Assembly: GCA_013166775.1 (NCBI GenBank)
Contig: JABLTJ010000002.1
Location: 32,001 to 96,000 of the forward strand
Reading direction: 5' to 3'
From: Promethearchaeati archaeon
GTDB taxonomy: Archaea; Asgardarchaeota; Heimdallarchaeia; Heimdallarchaeales; Heimdallarchaeaceae
DNA length: 64,000 nt
Positions within the stretch are counted from its first letter, which is position 1. Each line of letters starts with the position of its first letter. The position numbers were made by a program, and so were the translations under genes. Under the pieces are notes generated by a model. It searched no databases and had not been told where the DNA came from. It worked only from the letters and a program-made list of their open reading frames with translations. This document shows, piece by piece, positions 27,058 through 50,329 of this stretch.

Positions 27058-27966
27058 ATGGAAGATATTCTGAATTTGAAGAAGAAAGGTATTCCAATAA
27101 CAGTTGTAGGATTGCCTTCTGCAGGTAAAACAACATTAGTTAACTGGTTATCTGAGAAACGATTTACTAGACCCAAACCAACTGTAGGTTTAAAATTTAA
27201 TCAAATACAAATCGGAGATGTTATTTTCAATATATTTGATTTATCAGGTCAAGCTCAATACAGAGAAAAAATCTGGGAGACCTACATCATGACTTCTGCT
27301 GGGATAATTTTCATATTGGATTCATCTGAATCTGCTCTTCTGGAAGAAGCTAAGAAATGGTTTTGGACGATAATTAACGAATGGTTACAGGGTATTTTTT
27401 CTGATAAAATAATATTATTTTTAGCGAATAAATCTGATTTACAAAAATCTATGAAATTAGATGAGATCATAGAGAAGTTAGAATTGACACAGATGTCTTC
27501 TATTCCTAATATATCATTTCAGATTTTTAAAACATCAATTAGAACTAGCACCAATATTGATTTTGCCATGAAATGGTTTTTCTCTAAGATTGAACAGAGT
27601 GTTGAAGAACAAAAAATGAAACCTTCTGCAATAATTATCTCAGATACTTCTGGTACACCAATATACCTACATGATCCCAATGAAATTGTAGATGATACAG
27701 GTATGTTTGTAGGATATTTACGAGCTTTAAGTGGATTTTCTGATGAATTATTTGGTCAAGAGAAATTTAAGGTAATAAAAATAGAAAATCATTATTTCTT
27801 TATCTCTGAAGGGAAAAATCATAATGTTACAATTGCAGCTGGTAAGGAATCAGCTTTACCAGAAGCTCGACGATTATCTTTTCTAATACACGAATTCTTA
27901 TTAAAAGATGAGTATAAATTAAAAAACGGAGATTTAGATTCCTTTATTTCAGAATACATAATTTAA
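27058..27966 (+). CDS. Arf-like small GTPase with C-terminal longin/roadblock-like domain
   Basis: G1 GLPSAGKT, G2 PTVG, G3 DLSGQ, G4 NKSD, G5 TSI; C-terminal IIISDTSGTPIY...GYLRALSGFSDELFG. Confidence 0.88.
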   Translation: MEDILNLKKKGIPITVVGLPSAGKTTLVNWLSEKRFTRPKPTVGLKFNQIQIGDVIFNIFDLSGQAQYREKIWETYIMTSAGIIFILDSSESALLEEAKKWFWTIINEWLQGIFSDKIILFLANKSDLQKSMKLDEIIEKLELTQMSSIPNISFQIFKTSIRTSTNIDFAMKWFFSKIEQSVEEQKMKPSAIIISDTSGTPIYLHDPNEIVDDTGMFVGYLRALSGFSDELFGQEKFKVIKIENHYFFISEGKNHNVTIAAGKESALPEARRLSFLIHEFLLKDEYKLKNGDLDSFISEYII

Positions 27967-30528: not shown

Positions 30529-31078
30529 TGCTAATCATTTCTAGAATTTTATTGTGATCTGTTGCCATATTAACTTCGATATAATCTAGCTTTGTAGGCT
30601 CAAACATATCTCTGAATTTTTCATAAACATTCGAATCAGCATCACTTAAAGTTTTCCTATTTCTCTTTGCTCTTTCTTCGAATCTTTTTCTTATAAGGCT
30701 TTCAGGACATGTTACTAGTACTAGTAGGAATTTAGCCTCGAAACGAGCACTTATTCTTTTTACTTTACTTCGAAGTCGTTCTTGGTAAAACGTCCCATCA
30801 AGAACACAACCTACACCATGTTTCAGAAGAGTATAAAGAACATAATTGATAGTATCATAAACAACCAACCTTTGTCTAACAGAATACGAGCCCCTTCCGA
30901 AAGAATCTTCTCTCACATCTTTGAAAATCCTTTTTCTAACTGAATCAGTACTAATGTGCTCTAATCTATATTTTCTAGCAATCTTTCTAGCTAAAGTGGA
31001 CTTGCCAGTTCCTGGTAATCCAACTAGTAGAATAACTAAGGGGGGTCTTCTCTTAATTCTTGCAGAGATTAGATTCAC
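30500..31078 (-). CDS. AAA_33 family P-loop kinase
   Basis: GLPGTGKST, STDSVRK, VLDGTF, SDAD; probable GTG start at 31078 overlapping the upstream TGA (GTGA). Confidence 0.88.
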   Translation of the reverse strand: MNLISARIKRRPPLVILLVGLPGTGKSTLARKIARKYRLEHISTDSVRKRIFKDVREDSFGRGSYSVRQRLVVYDTINYVLYTLLKHGVGCVLDGTFYQERLRSKVKRISARFEAKFLLVLVTCPESLIRKRFEERAKRNRKTLSDADSNVYEKFRDMFEPTKLDYIEVNMATDHNKILEMISNALSKRSSE

Positions 31079-34044
31079 TTCCTTTTGGCATGTTCGGGGC
31101 ACAAGATTTGTGTTTCCTCTTTAAACATTCCTTTCTTTAAATGCTCCTTTGCATGCCTCTTACAAATATTTTTCCCACAAGAAGAACACTTATTTAAGTG
31201 ATCTTTGCAGCTAAAATCATCACAGAAATCACATTTTGTTGCGTCCTCTGAGGATATCACACTCTTACAAGTTGAGCATACTACTGCATGATTTGAACAT
31301 ATCGTTTTCTTTGAAATAGAGTCTTCAATTGTGTGATCTTGACATAAAACTTTCCCACATACAGAACAGACATCAGGAGTGGAAACAAATAGCATTTTTG
31401 TAGATTTCTGCTCTAAGCAAATTTCACAAAGTAAATGAACTTCAGTTCCTAAAGCAGATTCAGCTATTCCCTTTAACGTTAGATCATTTCCTCTGGAATC
31501 TACCAAAGATACTTCAGCTAACGATACAGGAATATAAATCTGAGCAGCATAAATATCCTTTATTTCACTTGCCCTCGGTAAAATGAATTCTTTTTTGTTC
31601 ACCATTTCTTGGACATTCTGTAATAATTTTATTTTTGGAGTAGCATTTATTTGAGCATCTAATGTTTTAATTCGTCTAATACCTTCTTCAACTTCCTTAA
31701 CGTAATTTTTTACAACTTCTGGACCATATTTAAGAGTTTCAATAGCTTTATTATAATCTCCAACATCACGGGTACTCTTATACTTGAACTTATCTTGCAT
31801 CAGTGGTTTTAGAACAACATACAAGCCTTTAGCCTGTTCGATTTTTGCTTGAAATTGTTTTACTTTCTTTCTCTTTTCATTAATTGCTGTCCAGAGTTGA
31901 TTTCGTTCTTTTGTTAATTCCTCTATCCAATTTTTAATTTCAGCTTCATGTTCCTTTTCAAGTTTCACTAAGCCTTCTTCTATAGCAGAACTCCATGCTT
32001 GTACATAGAAGGTTTGATCTATTAACAAAACATCATGAAAAGATTCTAAAATAGCTTCTGGTTTTCTCTGTATTTCTAGTGCCTTGATATTAGATGATGG
32101 AGCTCCATATAGACTACCAAGATTCTTCATTGGAAGAACTGATATAAGTTCTTCAAAGACTTCTTCTGGTTGGACAGTGATTGATTGTTGTTCCCAAATC
32201 TTTTCTTTATCAGAGTATTCAATTTTATCTATTAAAGGGAAAATTCTCTTTATTGGAAGCTCTAAAGTTATATCTGCCCAACGATCTGCTTTAGCGAAAT
32301 TTACTAGAGTTCTTCTCTTAGCTTTAATTTGAAAGTCTAAATATAAGAAGGGAACATAAGCTAGTTCCAGGCTATCAGTTCCTAAGTAACTGAATTTTCT
32401 CTCACCAAAGAATTTGTCTAGTAATTCTTTGAAATCAACGGATTCATATTTTATATGCTGCTCTTTCATCGATTTGATTATATTACTCAAATCAATAGGT
32501 TCAATCTCTTCTATTTCTTCTGGTAAAAATACTGTAGGTTTCTCTTCAGAAACAGGTTTTATACCTTCTTCTGTATCAATCGGTGAAGGTTTTATTCCTG
32601 CTTGTTGATCAAGCAAACTAGGTGTGCTTGAGATTTTTCTTATTGAAGATAATTCGTTTTCAAGATCTTCTAAATTGAGTTCTTTCTCTATGTCTTCAAA
32701 ATCAATAGCATCTATATCGTAATCATAATCCCCTATTTGTTTGCATAATGGAGCAGGTGGATCTTCGTAGAGTTTAGCTACATCTTCATCAGAAAGAGTC
32801 TTATGAACAGTGTACAATCTTCGAGTCTTGATATGTACAGGTTTTTCGAAATTGTCTGGTGATAAGACATAGAATTCACCGCTTTTAAAATTCTGAAGCT
32901 GATCTACAATGAATCTGGCTTCAGGATAGGCTTGAAGCATCTTATCTACAATTCGTAAATCCTGCGGTGTAACAAATCTTCCAAAAAAGAAAGTACTCAC
33001 CTGCCCAAAGGATTTGTAATCAACATCACTAATATTTTGAGTTGCTACTAACATAGATAATCCATATTTTCTTCCTTGTTTGAAGAGTAGTTGTAGCCAT
33101 TGTTTTGTTGGGGGATTCTTTGGATGTGGAGGGATGAATTGTGGAGGACCTGCTAGTTCATCAATATAGAATACAAGTTGAGGATCCGGTGAAGGATTTG
33201 ACCGAATATAAGTATAGAGATTTTGTGCAAGTGATGTTATGTATAATTCTCTAAGTCGAAGATCCGTTAGCGTATTTAGAAAGATAATTGCTATTCTTGT
33301 TTTTTCAGGATCTGTAGATTTTATCAGTGTTTGAATAGAGAGCTTGGGACCTAAATTAAAAACGAGGGAAGGCGCACCTACATTCACTGATTTTATCCTT
33401 TTTATTAGAGAACTCTTTTCATTTGCTGAGAGAAGTGTTCTGATATTCTCTGGTAAATAAGCAATTTCTGATTGTATTAAATCAATTAACATCTCGAAAT
33501 CTGCTATCAGAATATCTTTTTCCAAACACTGCTCAAATAAAGAAACTAAATAAGCTTTTACTGCACCACCTTTTTCTGTGTTTAGTTTATAACCAAGAAC
33601 GCTAGCGATTGTTGTAGCTATACCATCTATTGCTAGAATTTTCTCTTCTCTATCTAGTTCTTGAGGTGGCATTATAAGAGGATTAATAGATAAAGGGATA
33701 CCTTTTTCTGAAGCAGGGGTAAAAATAACAATCTCAACTTTTTCTTTATACTGATCATAAAACTCTTTAGAGATTCCATAAGGTTTTAGTTTGTCATAAT
33801 CTTCTACCATAACTAAGCTACTTATGTCTCCTTGTGGATCTATGATTATGGCAGGAATATCATTTCGCAGAGCTTCTTCAATTAAAATTTTACATGTAAC
33901 AGTCTTTCCGCTTCCACTCTGACCAAATACACTAATATGCTTGTTCAATGCTTTTAATGGCAGAAACACATTTTCTTTGGTTTCGTTATCTTCACCTATC
34001 AAAAGTGATGAAGAGTGTTTCCCTAAATCTGACATATTCTTCAA
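31075..34044 (-). CDS. HerA/FtsK-like (DUF87/DUF853) ATPase with coiled coil and C-terminal Cys/His zinc-finger repeats
   Basis: HISVFGQSGSGKT, IIIDPQGD, FYIDE, KQGRKYG, ATQN; C-terminal CxxCxxxxCxxH repeats. Confidence 0.88.
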   Translation of the reverse strand: MKNMSDLGKHSSSLLIGEDNETKENVFLPLKALNKHISVFGQSGSGKTVTCKILIEEALRNDIPAIIIDPQGDISSLVMVEDYDKLKPYGISKEFYDQYKEKVEIVIFTPASEKGIPLSINPLIMPPQELDREEKILAIDGIATTIASVLGYKLNTEKGGAVKAYLVSLFEQCLEKDILIADFEMLIDLIQSEIAYLPENIRTLLSANEKSSLIKRIKSVNVGAPSLVFNLGPKLSIQTLIKSTDPEKTRIAIIFLNTLTDLRLRELYITSLAQNLYTYIRSNPSPDPQLVFYIDELAGPPQFIPPHPKNPPTKQWLQLLFKQGRKYGLSMLVATQNISDVDYKSFGQVSTFFFGRFVTPQDLRIVDKMLQAYPEARFIVDQLQNFKSGEFYVLSPDNFEKPVHIKTRRLYTVHKTLSDEDVAKLYEDPPAPLCKQIGDYDYDIDAIDFEDIEKELNLEDLENELSSIRKISSTPSLLDQQAGIKPSPIDTEEGIKPVSEEKPTVFLPEEIEEIEPIDLSNIIKSMKEQHIKYESVDFKELLDKFFGERKFSYLGTDSLELAYVPFLYLDFQIKAKRRTLVNFAKADRWADITLELPIKRIFPLIDKIEYSDKEKIWEQQSITVQPEEVFEELISVLPMKNLGSLYGAPSSNIKALEIQRKPEAILESFHDVLLIDQTFYVQAWSSAIEEGLVKLEKEHEAEIKNWIEELTKERNQLWTAINEKRKKVKQFQAKIEQAKGLYVVLKPLMQDKFKYKSTRDVGDYNKAIETLKYGPEVVKNYVKEVEEGIRRIKTLDAQINATPKIKLLQNVQEMVNKKEFILPRASEIKDIYAAQIYIPVSLAEVSLVDSRGNDLTLKGIAESALGTEVHLLCEICLEQKSTKMLFVSTPDVCSVCGKVLCQDHTIEDSISKKTICSNHAVVCSTCKSVISSEDATKCDFCDDFSCKDHLNKCSSCGKNICKRHAKEHLKKGMFKEETQILCPEHAKRK

Positions 34045-34121
34045 TTAAAATGAATTATCAAAATATAAAAACTATTGTAAAATGTTCTTAATTAGGGAAA
34101 AAGAAGAAAGGATAGATTAAG

Positions 34122-34475
34122 TTACAATCCTGCAATAAGAAACAATATTCCGCCAATTATAACTAATAGACCGCCGATACCACCACCAACGATACCTAGA
34201 ACAATCAGTAAAATACCGATTACAATATAGTCAAGACCAAATCGTCCGAGTGCTAGTAGAATTGATAAGGCTCCTATAGCAATTAGTATAATAGCAGCAA
34301 TTAAGACGCTAAGTCCTAAATTACCACCTATCCAGTTTGCAGTATTGAAGATATCAAGAACTGATTCAAGGATACCACCTATAGCCATCAAAACTCCGAC
34401 GATTATTTCGATGATTCCACCTATAATACCAAAGATGGAACCCCAATTAGCTAGACTTTTATTTTTCTTTGCCAT
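34122..34475 (-). CDS. Small glycine-rich membrane protein
   Basis: 117 aa, nearly all hydrophobic, GxxxG motifs, ends IIGGILFLIAGL. Confidence 0.75.
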   Translation of the reverse strand: MAKKNKSLANWGSIFGIIGGIIEIIVGVLMAIGGILESVLDIFNTANWIGGNLGLSVLIAAIILIAIGALSILLALGRFGLDYIVIGILLIVLGIVGGGIGGLLVIIGGILFLIAGL

Positions 34476-34579
34476 GGAACAAATTATTACTAGCTATTTT
34501 TAAATTTTAGCTAGCATAAAATAATAAGACAACAAACTGAAGTTTTTGTACATCAAAAAACTTCGCTTTTAATAACTCG

Positions 34580-34963
34580 TTATCTCTTTCTAGTCGAAGC
34601 AATAATGTAAATTATCCCTCCAATTACTAAGAATAAACCAGGAAATCCTAAACCAAAAATACCGATGATAATAAGCATTATTCCTGTTGCTAAATCAGAA
34701 ATTTCTGCGTTTACTAAGATTATTGAAATAGCACCAAATGCTACTCCTAAAATGGCTAATACAAGAATAAAGTTGAATTCTGAAAGATTTTCTAATGCAC
34801 TGAAAACCACAGTTTTAATTACTATATCTCTCGCAATATCTGGTAATATAGAAGTAGTCAAGAAATAATCAATGAAAAGTAATAACCCTCCAAGAACGAA
34901 AAGAATCCCACCTATTAAAGAAAAAGCCTTTGCCCATTTAATCAGTTCTTTCTTGGTTACCAT
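34580..34963 (-). CDS. Small glycine-rich membrane protein (paralog of 34122-34475)
   Basis: Shared W...F.(L/I)IGGI start and (L/F)LVI(I)GGI end. Confidence 0.75.
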   Translation of the reverse strand: MVTKKELIKWAKAFSLIGGILFVLGGLLLFIDYFLTTSILPDIARDIVIKTVVFSALENLSEFNFILVLAILGVAFGAISIILVNAEISDLATGIMLIIIGIFGLGFPGLFLVIGGIIYIIASTRKR

Positions 34964-35008: not shown

Positions 35009-35959
35009 TTAGAGAACTTCAGCTCTGGATGTCACAATGTGAGGACTCACACTTTTGTTAAATCTGACTACAACGGAATTTTCATTTGATGTTCTTCTTC
35101 CATGTATTCTAGATATGACACCGATTATTTCCTTTCCTGATTTCATTTGCACTCGAACTCTTTTACCAAGATAACTTGCTAATGGTGCTTCTGTTCTATT
35201 TAAATTAATTATGACGGATCTATTTTTAGTTCTACCAGTTCTATCGTGAACAACGTTTCTCACAACGCCATAAGTTGGAGAAATCTTCACTTTCTTCTTT
35301 GCTTTTTTTGGTGTAGATTTTCTTTTTGGTTTAATCTTAGGAATTGCTCTAGCTCTCTTAATTTCTCTTTGAGTCGAAGGAGTAGCAGCTATTTTTACAT
35401 GCGTTTCCAAAGGTTTGATCACAGGTTTTTCTAAAGGTTTGGTTGCTGGTTTTGCTGTAGGTTTCTTTACAGATGGTCTAGCAGTTGGTTTTACTGGTGG
35501 TTTCTCTGTGACTGCTTTCTTAACTGCAGAAGGTTTGGGAATAGCTTCTTCCAATGAATCTTCTTTAACTGCTGGTTTTTTTGCTGTTGGTTTCTTTGCT
35601 ACTGGTTTTTTTGCTGTTGGTTTCTTTGCTACTGGTTTCTTTGCTGTTGGTTTCTTTGCTGCTGGTTTCTTTGCTGTTGGTTTCTTAGTTGCAGGTTTTG
35701 CAGGAGGTTTGGGAATAGTTTTAGCAGGAGGTTTAGCTACAGATTTCTTTTTAGGAGGAATGATTTTAGCTACTTCTTTTGCAGCTTCAATTATTTTCTC
35801 AGCTGTAGCTTGTCCAATACCTGGAAGTTGTGCCATTTCGTCAGCTTTTGCTTTAGCAATTTTCTCAATAGTATTATAACCACAATCCTCAAGTGTTTTA
35901 GCGACTTTAGATCCTATCCCTTTAATGTTTGATATTTCACTTTCAACCATTAGTTGCAC
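35009..35959 (-). CDS. Helix-hairpin-helix domain + Lys/Pro/Ala-rich linker + ribosomal protein eL33 (L35Ae)-like domain
   Basis: IKGIG/LPGIG HhH motifs; C-terminal ASYLGKRV....SGKEIIGVISRIHG...VVVRFNK matches the L35Ae pattern. Confidence 0.7.
   Translation of the reverse strand: MQLMVESEISNIKGIGSKVAKTLEDCGYNTIEKIAKAKADEMAQLPGIGQATAEKIIEAAKEVAKIIPPKKKSVAKPPAKTIPKPPAKPATKKPTAKKPAAKKPTAKKPVAKKPTAKKPVAKKPTAKKPAVKEDSLEEAIPKPSAVKKAVTEKPPVKPTARPSVKKPTAKPATKPLEKPVIKPLETHVKIAATPSTQREIKRARAIPKIKPKRKSTPKKAKKKVKISPTYGVVRNVVHDRTGRTKNRSVIINLNRTEAPLASYLGKRVRVQMKSGKEIIGVISRIHGRRTSNENSVVVRFNKSVSPHIVTSRAEVL
35571..35690. repeat. 15-bp tandem repeat, about 8 units, encoding (A/T)KKP(T/A/V)
   Basis: Repeated ggttt(c/t)tttgc core within the 35009-35959 CDS. 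Confidence 0.9.
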
Positions 35960-36122
35960 CTTTTTGAATGTCTCAAAGCATTAAATTAGTTTTAAAAGTT
36001 TTTAGATTGCAAAGTTTTTAGAAAGCAGCAATATTAAGAATCAAACTTTATAATCTAGAGGGTTAAATCAGATACAGTAAAATACTCTTTTCCGTTTGAG
36101 TAAATCACTGAGGATTATAGTA

Positions 36123-42137: not shown

Positions 42138-43748
42138 TTATTTCTCCTCTGATTTAGATTTTAATGCTCTAGCTCCATCAATTATTTTTTTTGCAGCTGC
42201 AATACTAATCCCTGGAACTTTGCTTATTTCTTCTGGACTAGTACTAATGATTTCATCAACACTAGTAAAACCCTTATCCTTGAGTAACATCGCTGTCTTA
42301 GCTCCAACTCCCACAATATCTGTAAGTTTAAACTGTGTTTTTTCGACTTCCTCACTTTTAATTTCTTCAACCTCAGTTTGGGATTCTGATTCCTTCTTTA
42401 CATCTTCTGACAGAGATTTTAACGCTCTAGCTCCATAGATTATTTTCTTTGCAGTTGTGATACCAACTCCTGGAACTTTACTCACTTCTTCTAGATTTGC
42501 ATCAACAATATCATCAATTCTAGCATAACCCATATCACTGAGCATCATTGCTGTTCTAGCTCCAACTCCCATGATGTCTGTTACTTTAAAAACTTCTTTT
42601 TCACCTTCCTCATCTTCTATTATTTCAATTTCAAAAGGTAATTCAGATTCTTTCTTTACTGGTTCTTCCTCTTTCTTCTTACTTGGTTTGACCTCATATG
42701 GTATAGGTATCACATCAACCTCAGGATCAATTTTCTTAACTGGAACAGTCTTTATAGTTTCTTTCCCCTTTAACACTTCACTAGGTTTTTGAAGGTGATG
42801 AACTTCGAAAGAATCGATTAATTCTTTTTCTTTAAGATATTCGCTTTGTTTCAGTAAGCTCTCACTAGGAGGAAGAAGTTTTTGATTTTTGACAATTTTT
42901 CCTAAAATTCTAGTTTTTTTTTCTTGTTCTAGTGTATCTTTTACGCGATCTTCCTGTACTTGACTTGGTGTTCTTAATTCTCCTGAGATGATTTCTATTG
43001 TATCCCTCTTCTTGAGATATTCCGAAGGTCGTAGCAAGCTTTCAGAGACTGGTTCGTCTAGGGTACTAGTTTCTTTAGGACTAGTAACTATAGGATCCCC
43101 ACTTATAGTTTTAAATGTAGGGATATAATCTTCATCTATATCAAAAACTGTCTCCTTTTTCTGTAAAGTTTCACTTGGTTTAAGCAGCGTATCATCTGGA
43201 GGTGCTTCTTTTGGTTCAACTTCCTTAACTTCCCTTTTGACAGGTTGTAAAGTTGTTTTTATTGGTGAGCTTATTTCAGTTGGTTTTGTAATCTCACTTG
43301 GTTTTACAAGAGTATCAACTGGACCATCAGCAATTTCAGCAGGAAGACCCTTTGGTTTACTTGGCTCCAATGGATCCCTTATTACTTTAGCTTCTCTTAT
43401 TTTAAGACCTGAAGAATGTAGAGCTACACCTTGACCTAAGCTTCTTACTGTTTCAAGCAATTGATAGAAATTGACATCGGTAATTCCGATATCGGAAAAA
43501 TATTCTGAAAGCCAGTTTGAAAATCTATGAACATTGACTTCAGTTCCCAGCATTTTTTCCCAGAAATTGATTATAGTAGTTGCCAATTGATCAAATGATG
43601 AAAATTTATGTGTCTCGATAACATGCTTTCCATCAAGTAGATCTAAAGATCCATTCATAGCGTCACTAAATTCCTTTTCTTCTGGTTTTATGATTACACT
43701 AAAACGATAACTTCCTATTAAGCTTCTTCGAGTTGGGCGTGAAGACAT
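42138..43748 (-). CDS. Protein with disordered L.KPSE-repeat region and two C-terminal helix-hairpin-helix domains
   Basis: Duplicated F K(V/L)TDI.GVG..TAM(M/L)L.D.G...VPG...AKKII.GARALKS; seven LxxPS(E/Q)-like motifs. Confidence 0.8.
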   Translation of the reverse strand: MSSRPTRRSLIGSYRFSVIIKPEEKEFSDAMNGSLDLLDGKHVIETHKFSSFDQLATTIINFWEKMLGTEVNVHRFSNWLSEYFSDIGITDVNFYQLLETVRSLGQGVALHSSGLKIREAKVIRDPLEPSKPKGLPAEIADGPVDTLVKPSEITKPTEISSPIKTTLQPVKREVKEVEPKEAPPDDTLLKPSETLQKKETVFDIDEDYIPTFKTISGDPIVTSPKETSTLDEPVSESLLRPSEYLKKRDTIEIISGELRTPSQVQEDRVKDTLEQEKKTRILGKIVKNQKLLPPSESLLKQSEYLKEKELIDSFEVHHLQKPSEVLKGKETIKTVPVKKIDPEVDVIPIPYEVKPSKKKEEEPVKKESELPFEIEIIEDEEGEKEVFKVTDIMGVGARTAMMLSDMGYARIDDIVDANLEEVSKVPGVGITTAKKIIYGARALKSLSEDVKKESESQTEVEEIKSEEVEKTQFKLTDIVGVGAKTAMLLKDKGFTSVDEIISTSPEEISKVPGISIAAAKKIIDGARALKSKSEEK

Positions 43749-47547: not shown

Positions 47548-48318
47548 TTAAACTGGTGATATTTCAATATTTAGAACGTCAAGAATTCTTGTCATTTCTT
47601 TAACATCTTCGATTGTTTTTATTCTTAAAGCACTTCTAAACATTGTTGAATTTAATTCAGAGGCAGTTTTGAAAATGTCACGTTTTCTCCAGACATCAAC
47701 TGAGGGATTGTAAAGAAGAATGTACATCACTTTTTTGTCCATATCACAGAGAAGATAAGTGTCTGCATATTCCAATCTTTTTCCTATCATTTCTTTTAAT
47801 GTATTATCTTGGTTCACACCATAAATTCTGGGTATTTTACCTGAAAACATGTCTATCATTCTTGTATACATTTTCTTGATTGAACTTGGATCGATTCCAG
47901 ATTCTCTCTGCAAACCTCTAGCTATCAATGTGAAATATGGTTCTATTAATCCATAACTATCTAGAACTTCTCTTACTGCTATTCCTTCAAATAGGAAATA
48001 AGCTACGCACAATCTATAACCAGAAGCAGCAATTCTTTCATCTGCTGAACTTGTAATTTCTGTTTCAAAAGGTATTGCAATAGCTTTGATATTTTCATGA
48101 TCAGGAACAGGTATTGGACCTAACATTTTTGGATTTTTGGTTCCATCAACTTTTCCGATTGATCCTTTGTTCATCTCAACTAGTGTCATTCCACTCATTA
48201 CTAAAGTTAAGGCTGTATTTTCTTCTACTTCTGAATTGTTAAATAATATCTCGGGACCGTAGTCCTTGAATATACTGAATATCAATTTTGGTTCTTTTGA
48301 AACATTTGGATTTATCAT
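47548..48318 (-). CDS. uDENN/longin-like domain fused to a gelsolin-like domain (putative)
   Basis: N-terminal LIFSIFKDYGPEI...LGPIPVP...DERI; C-terminal DTYLLCD..KKVMYI....SVDVWRKRDIFKTASEL. Confidence 0.5.
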   Translation of the reverse strand: MINPNVSKEPKLIFSIFKDYGPEILFNNSEVEENTALTLVMSGMTLVEMNKGSIGKVDGTKNPKMLGPIPVPDHENIKAIAIPFETEITSSADERIAASGYRLCVAYFLFEGIAVREVLDSYGLIEPYFTLIARGLQRESGIDPSSIKKMYTRMIDMFSGKIPRIYGVNQDNTLKEMIGKRLEYADTYLLCDMDKKVMYILLYNPSVDVWRKRDIFKTASELNSTMFRSALRIKTIEDVKEMTRILDVLNIEISPV

Positions 48319-48329
48319 TTTGGCACTCC

Positions 48330-49325
48330 TTATTGTGTATCTTCTCTACTTGGTTGTTGATCTAATAGAATTGCTATTTCAGGAATCTTGCTGAGAATTT
48401 CGTATTTGACTTGTCGAGGCATTTCCTTTGAAGGATCGCGTTCTTTTTCCTCAACAAAAGCATTTAGAATCTCTTCTGCGAGAGATTGTGCTTTGGATTC
48501 ACTATCATCTCGATCAACAAATAGAACTATACTCCATCCTCCCATCTTGCGGATAACCATCTTTACAACACCAAGTTTCACTACATCCATTACAGAATCA
48601 CTTTCAAAGATGGTTGAAGCCATGATATTAAGCGCACTAATCAACCCCCCAAGTAGAGTACTATCATGTTCTTCGACTGTTTGATCAAATGTATAATCAA
48701 ACGCTGGGACTCCTCCTTCTTGAAGTATTATGACCCTCTTTGGATTAACTTCTTCCCTTAGAGGTGTTCTTCCTGTCATTCTGGAGATTATCCAATCAAA
48801 AGCTGTGTAGAAATTTTCTCCAGTTTTTACACTGACTGGATAAATTGAAACAGAACGATTGATATCTTCCATAATTACTTGAAAAGCTGGATCTTGTAAC
48901 AAATCTGCAAAAGGAACAGCTTCAGCTATATCTGTTTTATTTGCCAAGAAAAGAATAGAAGTTTTTTGTGGTATCTTATCTAGTAAACTAAAAATATACT
49001 CAAAAGATACATCTACGTGTCTAGATGTTTGAGTATCTATAACAAAAACCACTCCATCTATTTCACCTAATATATCTTGGAAATAAGGACTTTCTCTTGC
49101 TGTTTCTTCATCTGCTTCAATAATTGTAAGAATGGACTTACCATAAGTTACATTTATAAAACAAGTTAGTTGTGTTGGTTGCGCGTCTGAAACAGTACCA
49201 TATATCAAACGATTTACAACACTTGATTTACCTGATTTCTCTAATCCTAATATAACTATCTGTGGTTTCTTTCCTTCTTTATTTAGTAGAAGTTTATCCC
49301 TAACGAAAGAAAGATAACTACTCAT
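48330..49325 (-). CDS. Arf-like GTPase with degenerate G3 and C-terminal longin-like domain
   Basis: G1 GLEKSGKS, G4 NKTD, G5 SVKTGEN; G3 replaced by EADEE; C-terminal ILQEGGVP...LLGGLISALN. Confidence 0.82.
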   Translation of the reverse strand: MSSYLSFVRDKLLLNKEGKKPQIVILGLEKSGKSSVVNRLIYGTVSDAQPTQLTCFINVTYGKSILTIIEADEETARESPYFQDILGEIDGVVFVIDTQTSRHVDVSFEYIFSLLDKIPQKTSILFLANKTDIAEAVPFADLLQDPAFQVIMEDINRSVSIYPVSVKTGENFYTAFDWIISRMTGRTPLREEVNPKRVIILQEGGVPAFDYTFDQTVEEHDSTLLGGLISALNIMASTIFESDSVMDVVKLGVVKMVIRKMGGWSIVLFVDRDDSESKAQSLAEEILNAFVEEKERDPSKEMPRQVKYEILSKIPEIAILLDQQPSREDTQ

Positions 49326-50329
49326 TATCTGCGTCCTCCTTCAACCTCAAGTGGAAACTTACTCTCTAATACTTCACTCAGATTCTTTTGAGCTTCTGTA
49401 GGATTTCGACTGAAATTCTCTAGAATTCTTAATTGAATCTGTTGTGCTCTAGTTACTGGATCAATTGGGTCTATCATAACAGATAAACAGTAAGCTCCAC
49501 GTTTAACATGACTAACATGTTTTTTATAGAGGCTTTCTAGTTTTACAGATTGAATACTTTCTTTTGACTCTATAGCAAAGAGTTTGGTTAATTCCTTGAG
49601 TTTCTTAAAATCATTTGCAACGAGAGCTTGCTCACTTGGTCTACCAAATAAAGCTTCAGAGATAATGTTTCCATCAATATCACTTAAAACTGCTGCACCA
49701 ATCTTGACTTTCCATTGCTGAGCGCCACAAAGCACATCTACAATCCAATCCCATGCGCTATAAACTCCTTGTCCAGTTAAAGCAGACACTTTTTTAATGT
49801 TGAATGGTCTTAAATTTCTGAGAAATTTATCTAATTCAAATGATTCATTAATTTCCGATAATTCCTTTGAATTAGGTAGGTCTCCCTTGTTTGCTAAGAA
49901 TAGTACTGGAGCACTTTGTTTTGCGAAATTTATATAATGCCAGAATGTTTGTTTTGATTCATCAAATCGAGCGTGATCAGCTGAATCTACTAAATAGATT
50001 ACTGCATCAGCTCTCTCAATAAATTTTTTCCATAAACTTAATCTAAATGGTTGATGTCCTCCTAAATCAAAACAAGTAAAATTTAAATCACGATATTGAT
50101 AATTTTCTAAATTGACCCCATAAGTAGGTCTTACAACTATATCATCTTGTTTTAGTAGTTTTTTAACCAAAGATGTTTTTCCTGCTCTTTCTAACCCTAG
50201 CAGAGCAACACTAAATTTATTCCTTCCTACAACTGATTCTTGGCTAGTTTCTACCTTCGTTGGTTGTTCTTGTTGCTCTCTTCTCTTCTTTTCTTCCATT
50301 ATACGTTTTCGAAATTCATAGAAAGACAT
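49325..50329 (-). CDS. Arf/Sar1-like small GTPase with C-terminal longin/roadblock-like domain
   Basis: G1 GLERAGKT, G2 PTYG, G3 FDLGGH, G4 NKGD, G5 SALTG; C-terminal VLSDIDGNII. Confidence 0.9.
   Translation of the reverse strand: MSFYEFRKRIMEEKKRREQQEQPTKVETSQESVVGRNKFSVALLGLERAGKTSLVKKLLKQDDIVVRPTYGVNLENYQYRDLNFTCFDLGGHQPFRLSLWKKFIERADAVIYLVDSADHARFDESKQTFWHYINFAKQSAPVLFLANKGDLPNSKELSEINESFELDKFLRNLRPFNIKKVSALTGQGVYSAWDWIVDVLCGAQQWKVKIGAAVLSDIDGNIISEALFGRPSEQALVANDFKKLKELTKLFAIESKESIQSVKLESLYKKHVSHVKRGAYCLSVMIDPIDPVTRAQQIQLRILENFSRNPTEAQKNLSEVLESKFPLEVEGGRR

Follow-up and report, generated by a model that had tools for sequence, protein, structure and literature searches.

In the genome of a member of the Heimdallarchaeaceae (G000, 88.7% complete), a gene on the minus strand at 35009-35950 of the window, by which we mean the whole 64,000-nucleotide stretch of DNA that was analysed, encodes a protein (P0001; 313 residues and a stop codon) in which an N-terminal (HhH)2 domain is carried on a long basic linker ahead of a beta-barrel that is, to our minds, virtually certain to be a homolog of ribosomal protein eL33 (L35Ae). 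The protein is most likely the ribosomal ortholog of eL33, and we consider it likely that it works as a functional eL33 bound to the 50S subunit and equipped with a flexible, nucleic-acid-gripping arm, which would hold RNA more probably than the chromosome. HhH-armed ribosomal proteins are already known in the form of haloarchaeal eL32; no paper describing HhH on eL33 was found in a literature search that covered mostly journals free of subscription. In a 2023 review that tabulates archaeal ribosomal proteins, Heimdallarchaeota and Odinarchaeota are precisely the groups whose eL33 is given as unknown (PMC9932298), and the proteins described here fill these two blanks, where eL33 had been hidden behind an HhH annotation.

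Gene layout and the C-terminal barrel

The open reading frame of the first-pass annotation (35009-35959) stands, except for its upstream limit: in a start alignment, orthologs begin at the ATG at 35950, and the earlier start at 35959 is a GTG within an SD-like AGGTG (35957-35961). The features of the gene, with the evidence for each, are these:

35009..35950, minus strand: HhH-linker-eL33 gene (ORF call, start alignment, full-length AF2 model)
35957..35961, minus strand: AGGTG 6 nt ahead of the ATG, a predicted SD-like element with a putative function (sequence)
35774..35938, minus strand: (HhH)2 domain of the RadA/Rad51 N-terminal type, residues 5-59 (Pfam HHH_5, E=6.3e-15)
35390..35758, minus strand: disordered K/P/A/T linker, residues 65-187 (pLDDT mostly <50; composition)
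35570..35689, minus strand: eight tandem 15-bp units encoding (T/A)KKP(T/A/V), residues 88-127 (TRF and in-register count)
35276..35389, minus strand: basic extension next to the barrel, residues 188-225, helix predicted at 191-199 (pLDDT 76-87; alignment)
35012..35275, minus strand: eL33/L35Ae beta-barrel, residues 226-313, net charge about +12 (profile, fold and alignment evidence)
35222..35254, minus strand: remodelled beta1-beta2 loop, residues 233-243 (alignment with canonical Asgard eL33)

The full-length AF2 model has a confident HhH domain, disorder from about residue 70 to 184, a helix at 191-199 and then the barrel. That this last domain is L35Ae had been proposed from a motif, and the proposal is borne out by profile, hhalign, Foldseek and VIA comparisons; the motif itself, written as a regular expression, picks out this ORF alone among the 27,031 six-frame ORFs of the genome. 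The Pfam L35Ae HMM, the check suggested at first pass, does recognise the domain (E=4.2e-4), albeit below its curated cut-off (20.9 of 27 bits), and the single sequence likewise falls under the NCBIfam L35ae cut-off (E=1.1e-6, 28.6 of 85 bits); the Heimdall protein carries no L35Ae annotation because divergence keeps its scores beneath such thresholds. A profile built from 30 family sequences matches P. furiosus eL33 from position 6 to position 89 of its 90 (E=4.5e-13), the 32 best matches in a PDB search with the family profile are all eL33, PF01247 is matched by 23 of the 30 family members, and hhalign of the family against canonical Asgard eL33 gives 98.98% with E=6e-18. The AF2 model of the barrel (pLDDT 88.5) has the six-stranded eL33 fold. 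With this model as query, the 50 highest-ranking Foldseek rows consist entirely of ribosome entries and isolated L35Ae structures (TM 0.73 to 9QF4 chain Bc), and VIA places ribosomal chains first and second (Z 10.4 and 9.7), the best being a Plasmodium ribosome chain aligned over 86 residues at an rmsd of 3.3, with unrelated barrels close behind at Z 9.6. An LSM/Sm identity for the domain (Pfam LSM and SM-ATX, E ~1e-3) was rejected on grounds of partial coverage and of being outscored by eL33 in both profile and fold searches. The ESM Atlas returned ordinary L35Ae clusters only.

With archaeal and eukaryotic eL33/L35Ae (PF01247, NF003326; 4V6U chain Bc, 1SQR, 2LP6) the Heimdall protein has in common the six-stranded barrel, the G..G.I..HG..RF core, whose structural glycines, HG and RF are represented by G228, G262, G277, H283-G284 and F297, a basic surface and occurrence in single copy. 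It differs from canonical eL33 in its ~225 extra N-terminal residues bearing (HhH)2, in its sub-cut-off scores and in the replacement of two signature segments. The canonical Y-R-R..Q loop has become V(V/L)HD..G(K/R)(S/T).N, which is conserved in the Heimdallarchaeaceae (f1): Y, R, R and Q are each present in none of 14 sequences from this family, as against 90-100% of 30 canonical Asgard eL33. The canonical PG..G.T end is likewise replaced in the f1 barrel. The YRR..Q loop is partly retained in families f3 and f4 and fully in f6.

Downstream of the gene and on the same strand, at 31075-34963 (minus), are encoded two small membrane proteins rich in Gly and an ATPase of 989 aa that resembles HerA; the ATPase is kept as a neighbour in 25 family loci, and pcp lies upstream in divergent orientation. 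No synteny tying the HhH-eL33 gene to other ribosomal genes was seen, and its locus has none in common with the loci of canonical Asgard eL33, an absence that is uninformative because canonical Asgard eL33 also lies outside ribosomal operons. Elsewhere in the window, at 47551-50329 (minus) and 27058-27963 (plus), ORFs with P-loop motifs resemble small GTPases, and two of these ORFs lie side by side.

Copy number, distribution and descent

The HhH-linker-eL33 gene is the only eL33 match in its genome and is the sole match in each of two single-contig relatives, G027 and G030; in the latter, Ca. Heimdallarchaeum endolithica, the protein (UJG44696.1) is annotated only as hypothetical or as an HhH protein. 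The first-pass annotation had offered two branches, an extended ribosomal protein or an eL33 paralog repurposed for other work, and had pointed to a second, canonical eL33 as the means of telling them apart. No short copy was found, so the extended protein stands alone, and the paralog branch finds no support for want of another copy to free it; the extended ribosomal protein is upheld by one eL33 match in this genome, in the two single-contig relatives and in every eL33-bearing genome of the order. The one exception to single copy is the f6 bin G048, in which a second, f1-type copy with f1 neighbours sits on a short contig (C109:1060-1332, L018) and is probably bin contamination. Within the family, HhH-eL33 was found in 23 of the 30 other genomes, with several matches at contig ends, and assembly breaks caused by the repeats probably lie behind some of the missing copies. 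Canonical eL33 exceeds the cut-off in 182 of 300 Asgard genomes, nearly always as a short frame, whereas it does so in none of 61 close relatives, which have the extended form; this complementary pattern argues for an ortholog rather than a spare paralog. The layout is shared by f3 and f4, two further families of the order, where the HhH domains number one or two (four in one metagenomic protein), and in f6 eL33 bears a basic N-terminal tail without HhH.

Three queries found no eL33 in 24 genomes of the sister families f5 and f7, which are probably Hodarchaeales and include G228 (single contig, 96%) and G204 (99%); Rpo5 is present in 23 of these 24 genomes, and eL32 was found in G228. It follows that eL33 can be dispensable in this class, and one branch of Asgard archaea may have dropped it. 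That its loss from the ribosome is survivable, together with the eroded YRR loop, the long branch and the strongly basic linker of the Heimdall protein, would suit a protein that has left the ribosome for an H1-like chromatin or RNA-condensing role. We regard such a departure as very unlikely in view of the single copy, the conserved basic barrel and purifying selection, of a divergence that is graded (canonical > f6 > f3 > f4 > f1) among proteins with the same arm, and of the presence of that arm on near-canonical eL33 and on uS4, with similar tails on many machines of the genus. The lost YRR..Q loop, the lost PG..G.T end and the long branch do imply that ribosome binding may be weakened. In favour of an armed ribosomal eL33 count the invariant hairpin glycines and low dN/dS of the HhH domain and its occurrence on near-canonical eL33 and on uS4; we consider it very likely that HhH-eL33 is built into ribosomes.

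A homolog search over 1.84 billion representatives extended the architecture beyond the Heimdall order. It returned HhH-linker-eL33 proteins of Ca. Odinarchaeum yellowstonii (WEU40413.1) and of a second genome from the Odinarchaeia. Genome searches found the fusion in both of the Odin-family genomes that they covered (L305); the second hairpin of the Odin HhH is degenerate, and the domain gives a weak RNAP-alpha match. HhH-eL33 is also found in a further Asgard family, f24 (L309), whose barrel retains YRR and whose homologs NCBI names L35ae. In G106, P0193 and P0194, HhH stands on a near-canonical eL33 that keeps the YRR loop and is named L35ae by NCBI. Short HhH-eL33 proteins of 145-152 aa are encoded on contigs from soda lakes and similar sources (L312, L317, L320), which bear a PCNA-primase-GINS-L44e-S27e-aIF2alpha gene run and appear from this to be euryarchaeal; one such protein (P0052) scores 85.5 bits and so clears the curated threshold for L35ae, which is 85. 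The soda-lake HhH is of the UvrC/Hef subtype, not RadA, and is 22-38% identical to the Heimdall copies. In family f17, eL33 has a K-rich tail without HhH (L301).

In the barrel tree each family forms a clade, with the Heimdallarchaeaceae on a long branch. Under wider sampling f1 stands apart from f3 and f4, though monophyly of the three was not rejected (p-AU 0.114), and its barrel may conceivably have been replaced by transfer. The origin of the fusion requires 3-5 gains or losses on the trees; a single origin was not rejected (p-AU 0.164) in a test that scored G106 as HhH-less although it bears HhH. Since the HhH subtype differs and many intervening lineages have short eL33, HhH-eL33 was probably gained repeatedly. 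The HhH-domain tree (59 columns) did not separate the donor or the order of events, and codon usage compared with that of ribosomal genes showed a very weak bias over short segments.

The arm and its proposed role

The eight 15-bp repeats noticed at first pass were counted exactly, as eight in-register T/A-KKP-x units at 35570-35689 (TRF: 35569-35698, period 15, 8.7 copies, score 183), within an inter-domain region of net charge +44 over 161 aa. Ortholog linkers run from 55 to 293 aa and are net positive in all but one; the repeat unit varies, and repeat number, whose comparison across strains had been suggested, differs even between close relatives. The barrel-proximal extension (188-225) is semi-conserved within the genus. 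With histone H1 tails and Chlamydia Hc2 (Pfam HC2) the linker shares K/P/A/T-rich basic repeats, a likeness of composition only: an identity as histone H1-like HC2 was rejected, the match lying under the cut-off (E=9e-6, 26.3 of 40 bits) and the linker being internal between two folded domains. A scan of the genome for long K/P-rich tracts gave 12 ORFs, of which the top five are eL33, uS4, Rpo5, Rrp41 and uS3. Because similar tails sit on these other proteins, the AKKP repeats would be a habit of the lineage and the HhH domain the part that is selected.

Across 22 close pairs, which are not independent of one another, pooled dN/dS comes to 0.21 in HhH and 0.22 in the barrel, and to 0.43 in the part of the linker that can be aligned; dN of HhH is lower than that of the barrel, and both domains are under purifying selection. 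These values bear on the notion that the whole appendage is near-neutral, a tail built by slippage and joined to a mobile HhH without specific role, to which the spread of linker lengths, the variable repeat number between close relatives, the generality of tails in the genus and an HhH copy number of 1, 2 or 4 would lend themselves. The constraint on HhH, exceeding the barrel's in dN, and its retention across three families and presence on eL33 of distant lineages make near-neutrality most improbable.

The N-terminal HhH pair seen at first pass is securely recognised by Pfam HHH_5 (residues 5-59, 55.8 bits over a cut-off of 27). It is modelled as five helices (pLDDT ~95) with both hairpin GhG motifs intact and a net charge of about 0, and G11, G13 and G44 are invariant across 25 orthologs. 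The best PDB match, and the best NCBIfam match, is the RadA/Rad51 N-terminal (HhH)2 (1pzn, E=1e-7); haloarchaeal eL32 is matched at E=1e-4, and there is also a resemblance to the AR repeats of NusA. Unlike RadA, the eL33 protein has no ATPase core. In known HhH proteins the hairpin GhG motifs touch the phosphate backbone without sequence preference, and the eL33-borne HhH is likely to bind nucleic acid too. A complex prediction for an HhH homodimer scored 0.00, which is not evidence for or against.

Taken from its C-terminus, the armed protein would be arranged as follows. On helix 41, eL33 takes the place that bL20 has in bacteria (PMC11354259), close to ES7 and ES39 (PMC7594248), and the Heimdall barrel would dock at this usual site on the solvent side of the 50S subunit. 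Segment 188-225, which is basic, would follow the rRNA as extensions of ribosomal proteins ordinarily do, and it may make up for the missing YRR loop; beyond it the linker would be free in solution, carrying (HhH)2. The latter would grip the backbone of duplex nucleic acid without sequence preference, and the arm would give additional avidity for nucleic acid in its vicinity. This would most likely be RNA, either mRNA or rRNA helices, the latter belonging to the ribosome that bears the arm or to one beside it; the arm may thereby hold ribosomes on transcripts or to each other, or aid assembly. In Heimdallarchaeota imaged by CARD-FISH, DNA and ribosomes lie 0.18 +/- 0.07 um apart (PMC8776820), the imaged lineage being one that is not matched here to the Heimdallarchaeaceae, and this distance is why we hold RNA to be distinctly the likelier main ligand over chromosomal DNA.

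The same separation weighs against an arm by which ribosomes would be tied to DNA or the transcription complex, in the manner of transcription-translation coupling. Such a tether is unlikely, although the domain is closest to a DNA-binding one, the N-domain of Rad51/RadA, and resembles the NusA AR repeats, the linker is H1-like by its sub-cut-off HC2 match and, from its 160 residues, could span tens of nm, and a PAKKTT tail is present on the genome's Rpo5. Also against it, bacterial coupling takes place at the mRNA entry, from which eL33, at the back of the large subunit, is remote. A separate proposal, that HhH clamps a supersized ES39, was rejected: by published ES39 sizes (PMC7594248), Loki has the largest ES39 but a short eL33, and Odin a short ES39 but the fusion. 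Close prokaryotic relatives of eukaryotes would thus be remodelling the eL33/ES39 corner of the ribosome by long extensions. The natural variants of eL33, whose linkers are short or long and whose HhH domains number 0, 1, 2 or 4, are few enough to be testable.

Related arms and tails on other proteins

HhH arms are tolerated on another, undoubted ribosomal protein of this genome, whose only uS4, encoded within the S13-S4-S11 operon, ends in an (HhH)2 preceded by a repeat linker of 120 aa (G000 C1:77206-78294, plus; L058:7216-8298). The eL33 (HhH)2 is 48% identical to this uS4 copy and so nearer to it than to the N-domains of the genome's RadA proteins (28-33%). Among complete sequences the HhH-uS4 form occurs in genus g1 only. 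Within the window, a 536-aa protein (42138-43748, minus) combines an unassigned N-terminal domain of about 110 aa, a long low-complexity linker and two (HhH)2, which group with the uS4 copy (support 100/93); a 499-aa homolog sits 3 kb from eL33 in G027.

Such relatives could be read as partners, with (HhH)2 docking proteins much as NusA AR1/AR2, the RNAP alpha CTD or XPF-ERCC1 do, either to bring a factor to the ribosome or to pair with another HhH. The near-zero charge of the domain, which is not basic, would fit this, as would its relatives on uS4 and in the syntenic gene at 42138-43748 (536 aa) and the degenerate second hairpin and weak RNAP-alpha match of the Odin copy. We think docking quite unlikely: the Heimdall copies keep both GhG motifs, as phosphate contacts would require, and HhH on uS4 was found in one genus only whereas on eL33 it is order-wide, so that pairing of uS4 with eL33 is not the original function. 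The preferred reading remains an arm that grips RNA.

Parallels are found in other ribosomal proteins. Haloarchaeal eL32 (NF009401/PRK12766; 1JJ2 X, 1S72 Y, 9L94 Q) is, like the Heimdall protein, a large-subunit protein with an N-terminal (HhH)2 and a long linker, and its HhH profile matches residues 4-53 of the Heimdall protein (E=3.7e-7). It is a different ribosomal protein from eL33, and its linker is acidic where the Heimdall linker is basic. In this genome no HhH was found on eL32. The bacterial bL21 fusion (NF008915/PRK12278) similarly combines a ribosomal protein, a low-complexity linker and an HhH-like module, but the module is C-terminal and the core unrelated to eL33; the nearby 536-aa gene gives a weak match to NF008915 in its HhH region (E=0.0012). 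Bacterial uS2 is also fused to an HhH-like domain, and to our knowledge neither these bL21 and uS2 fusions nor the repeated joining of HhH to ribosomal proteins in general has been assigned a function. It is conceivable, if somewhat doubtful, that ribosomes have gained flexible (HhH)2 arms time and again at a single patch on the solvent side of the large subunit (through eL33 in Heimdall, Odin and soda-lake lineages, eL32 in haloarchaea, bL21 in bacteria) for one general job, such as tethering ribosomes to DNA, to mRNA or to each other; in Asgard cells such a job could keep a riboplasm organised away from the nucleoid.

Tails without HhH are general in the genus. K/P/E-rich tracts concentrate on information-processing complexes, and uS3, Rrp41, DnaG and a RadA carry long K/P/E-rich repeat tails or inserts (G000 C1:58656-59669, C1:167852-168910, C54:120518-122134 and C25:3157-4437). 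Rpo5/Rpb5 of genus g1 has two domains and an H1-like PAKKTT tail (G000 C93:17521-18468, plus; L199:2049-2972); the tail is acidic in g4, there is none in f5 and f6, and in f3 and f4 the protein is 430-500 aa long, with an apparent triplicated N-terminal domain before the RpoH domain (L285-L290; G036, G035, G040, G042, G032, G037). In f6, eL32 reaches 290 aa through a C-terminal K/T/A-rich, H1-like tail (L299:1444-2313, G056). A 4175-aa frame in this genome (G000 C2:113629-126153, minus) starts like topoisomerase VI subunit B, ends in a K-rich tail and possibly contains several inteins.
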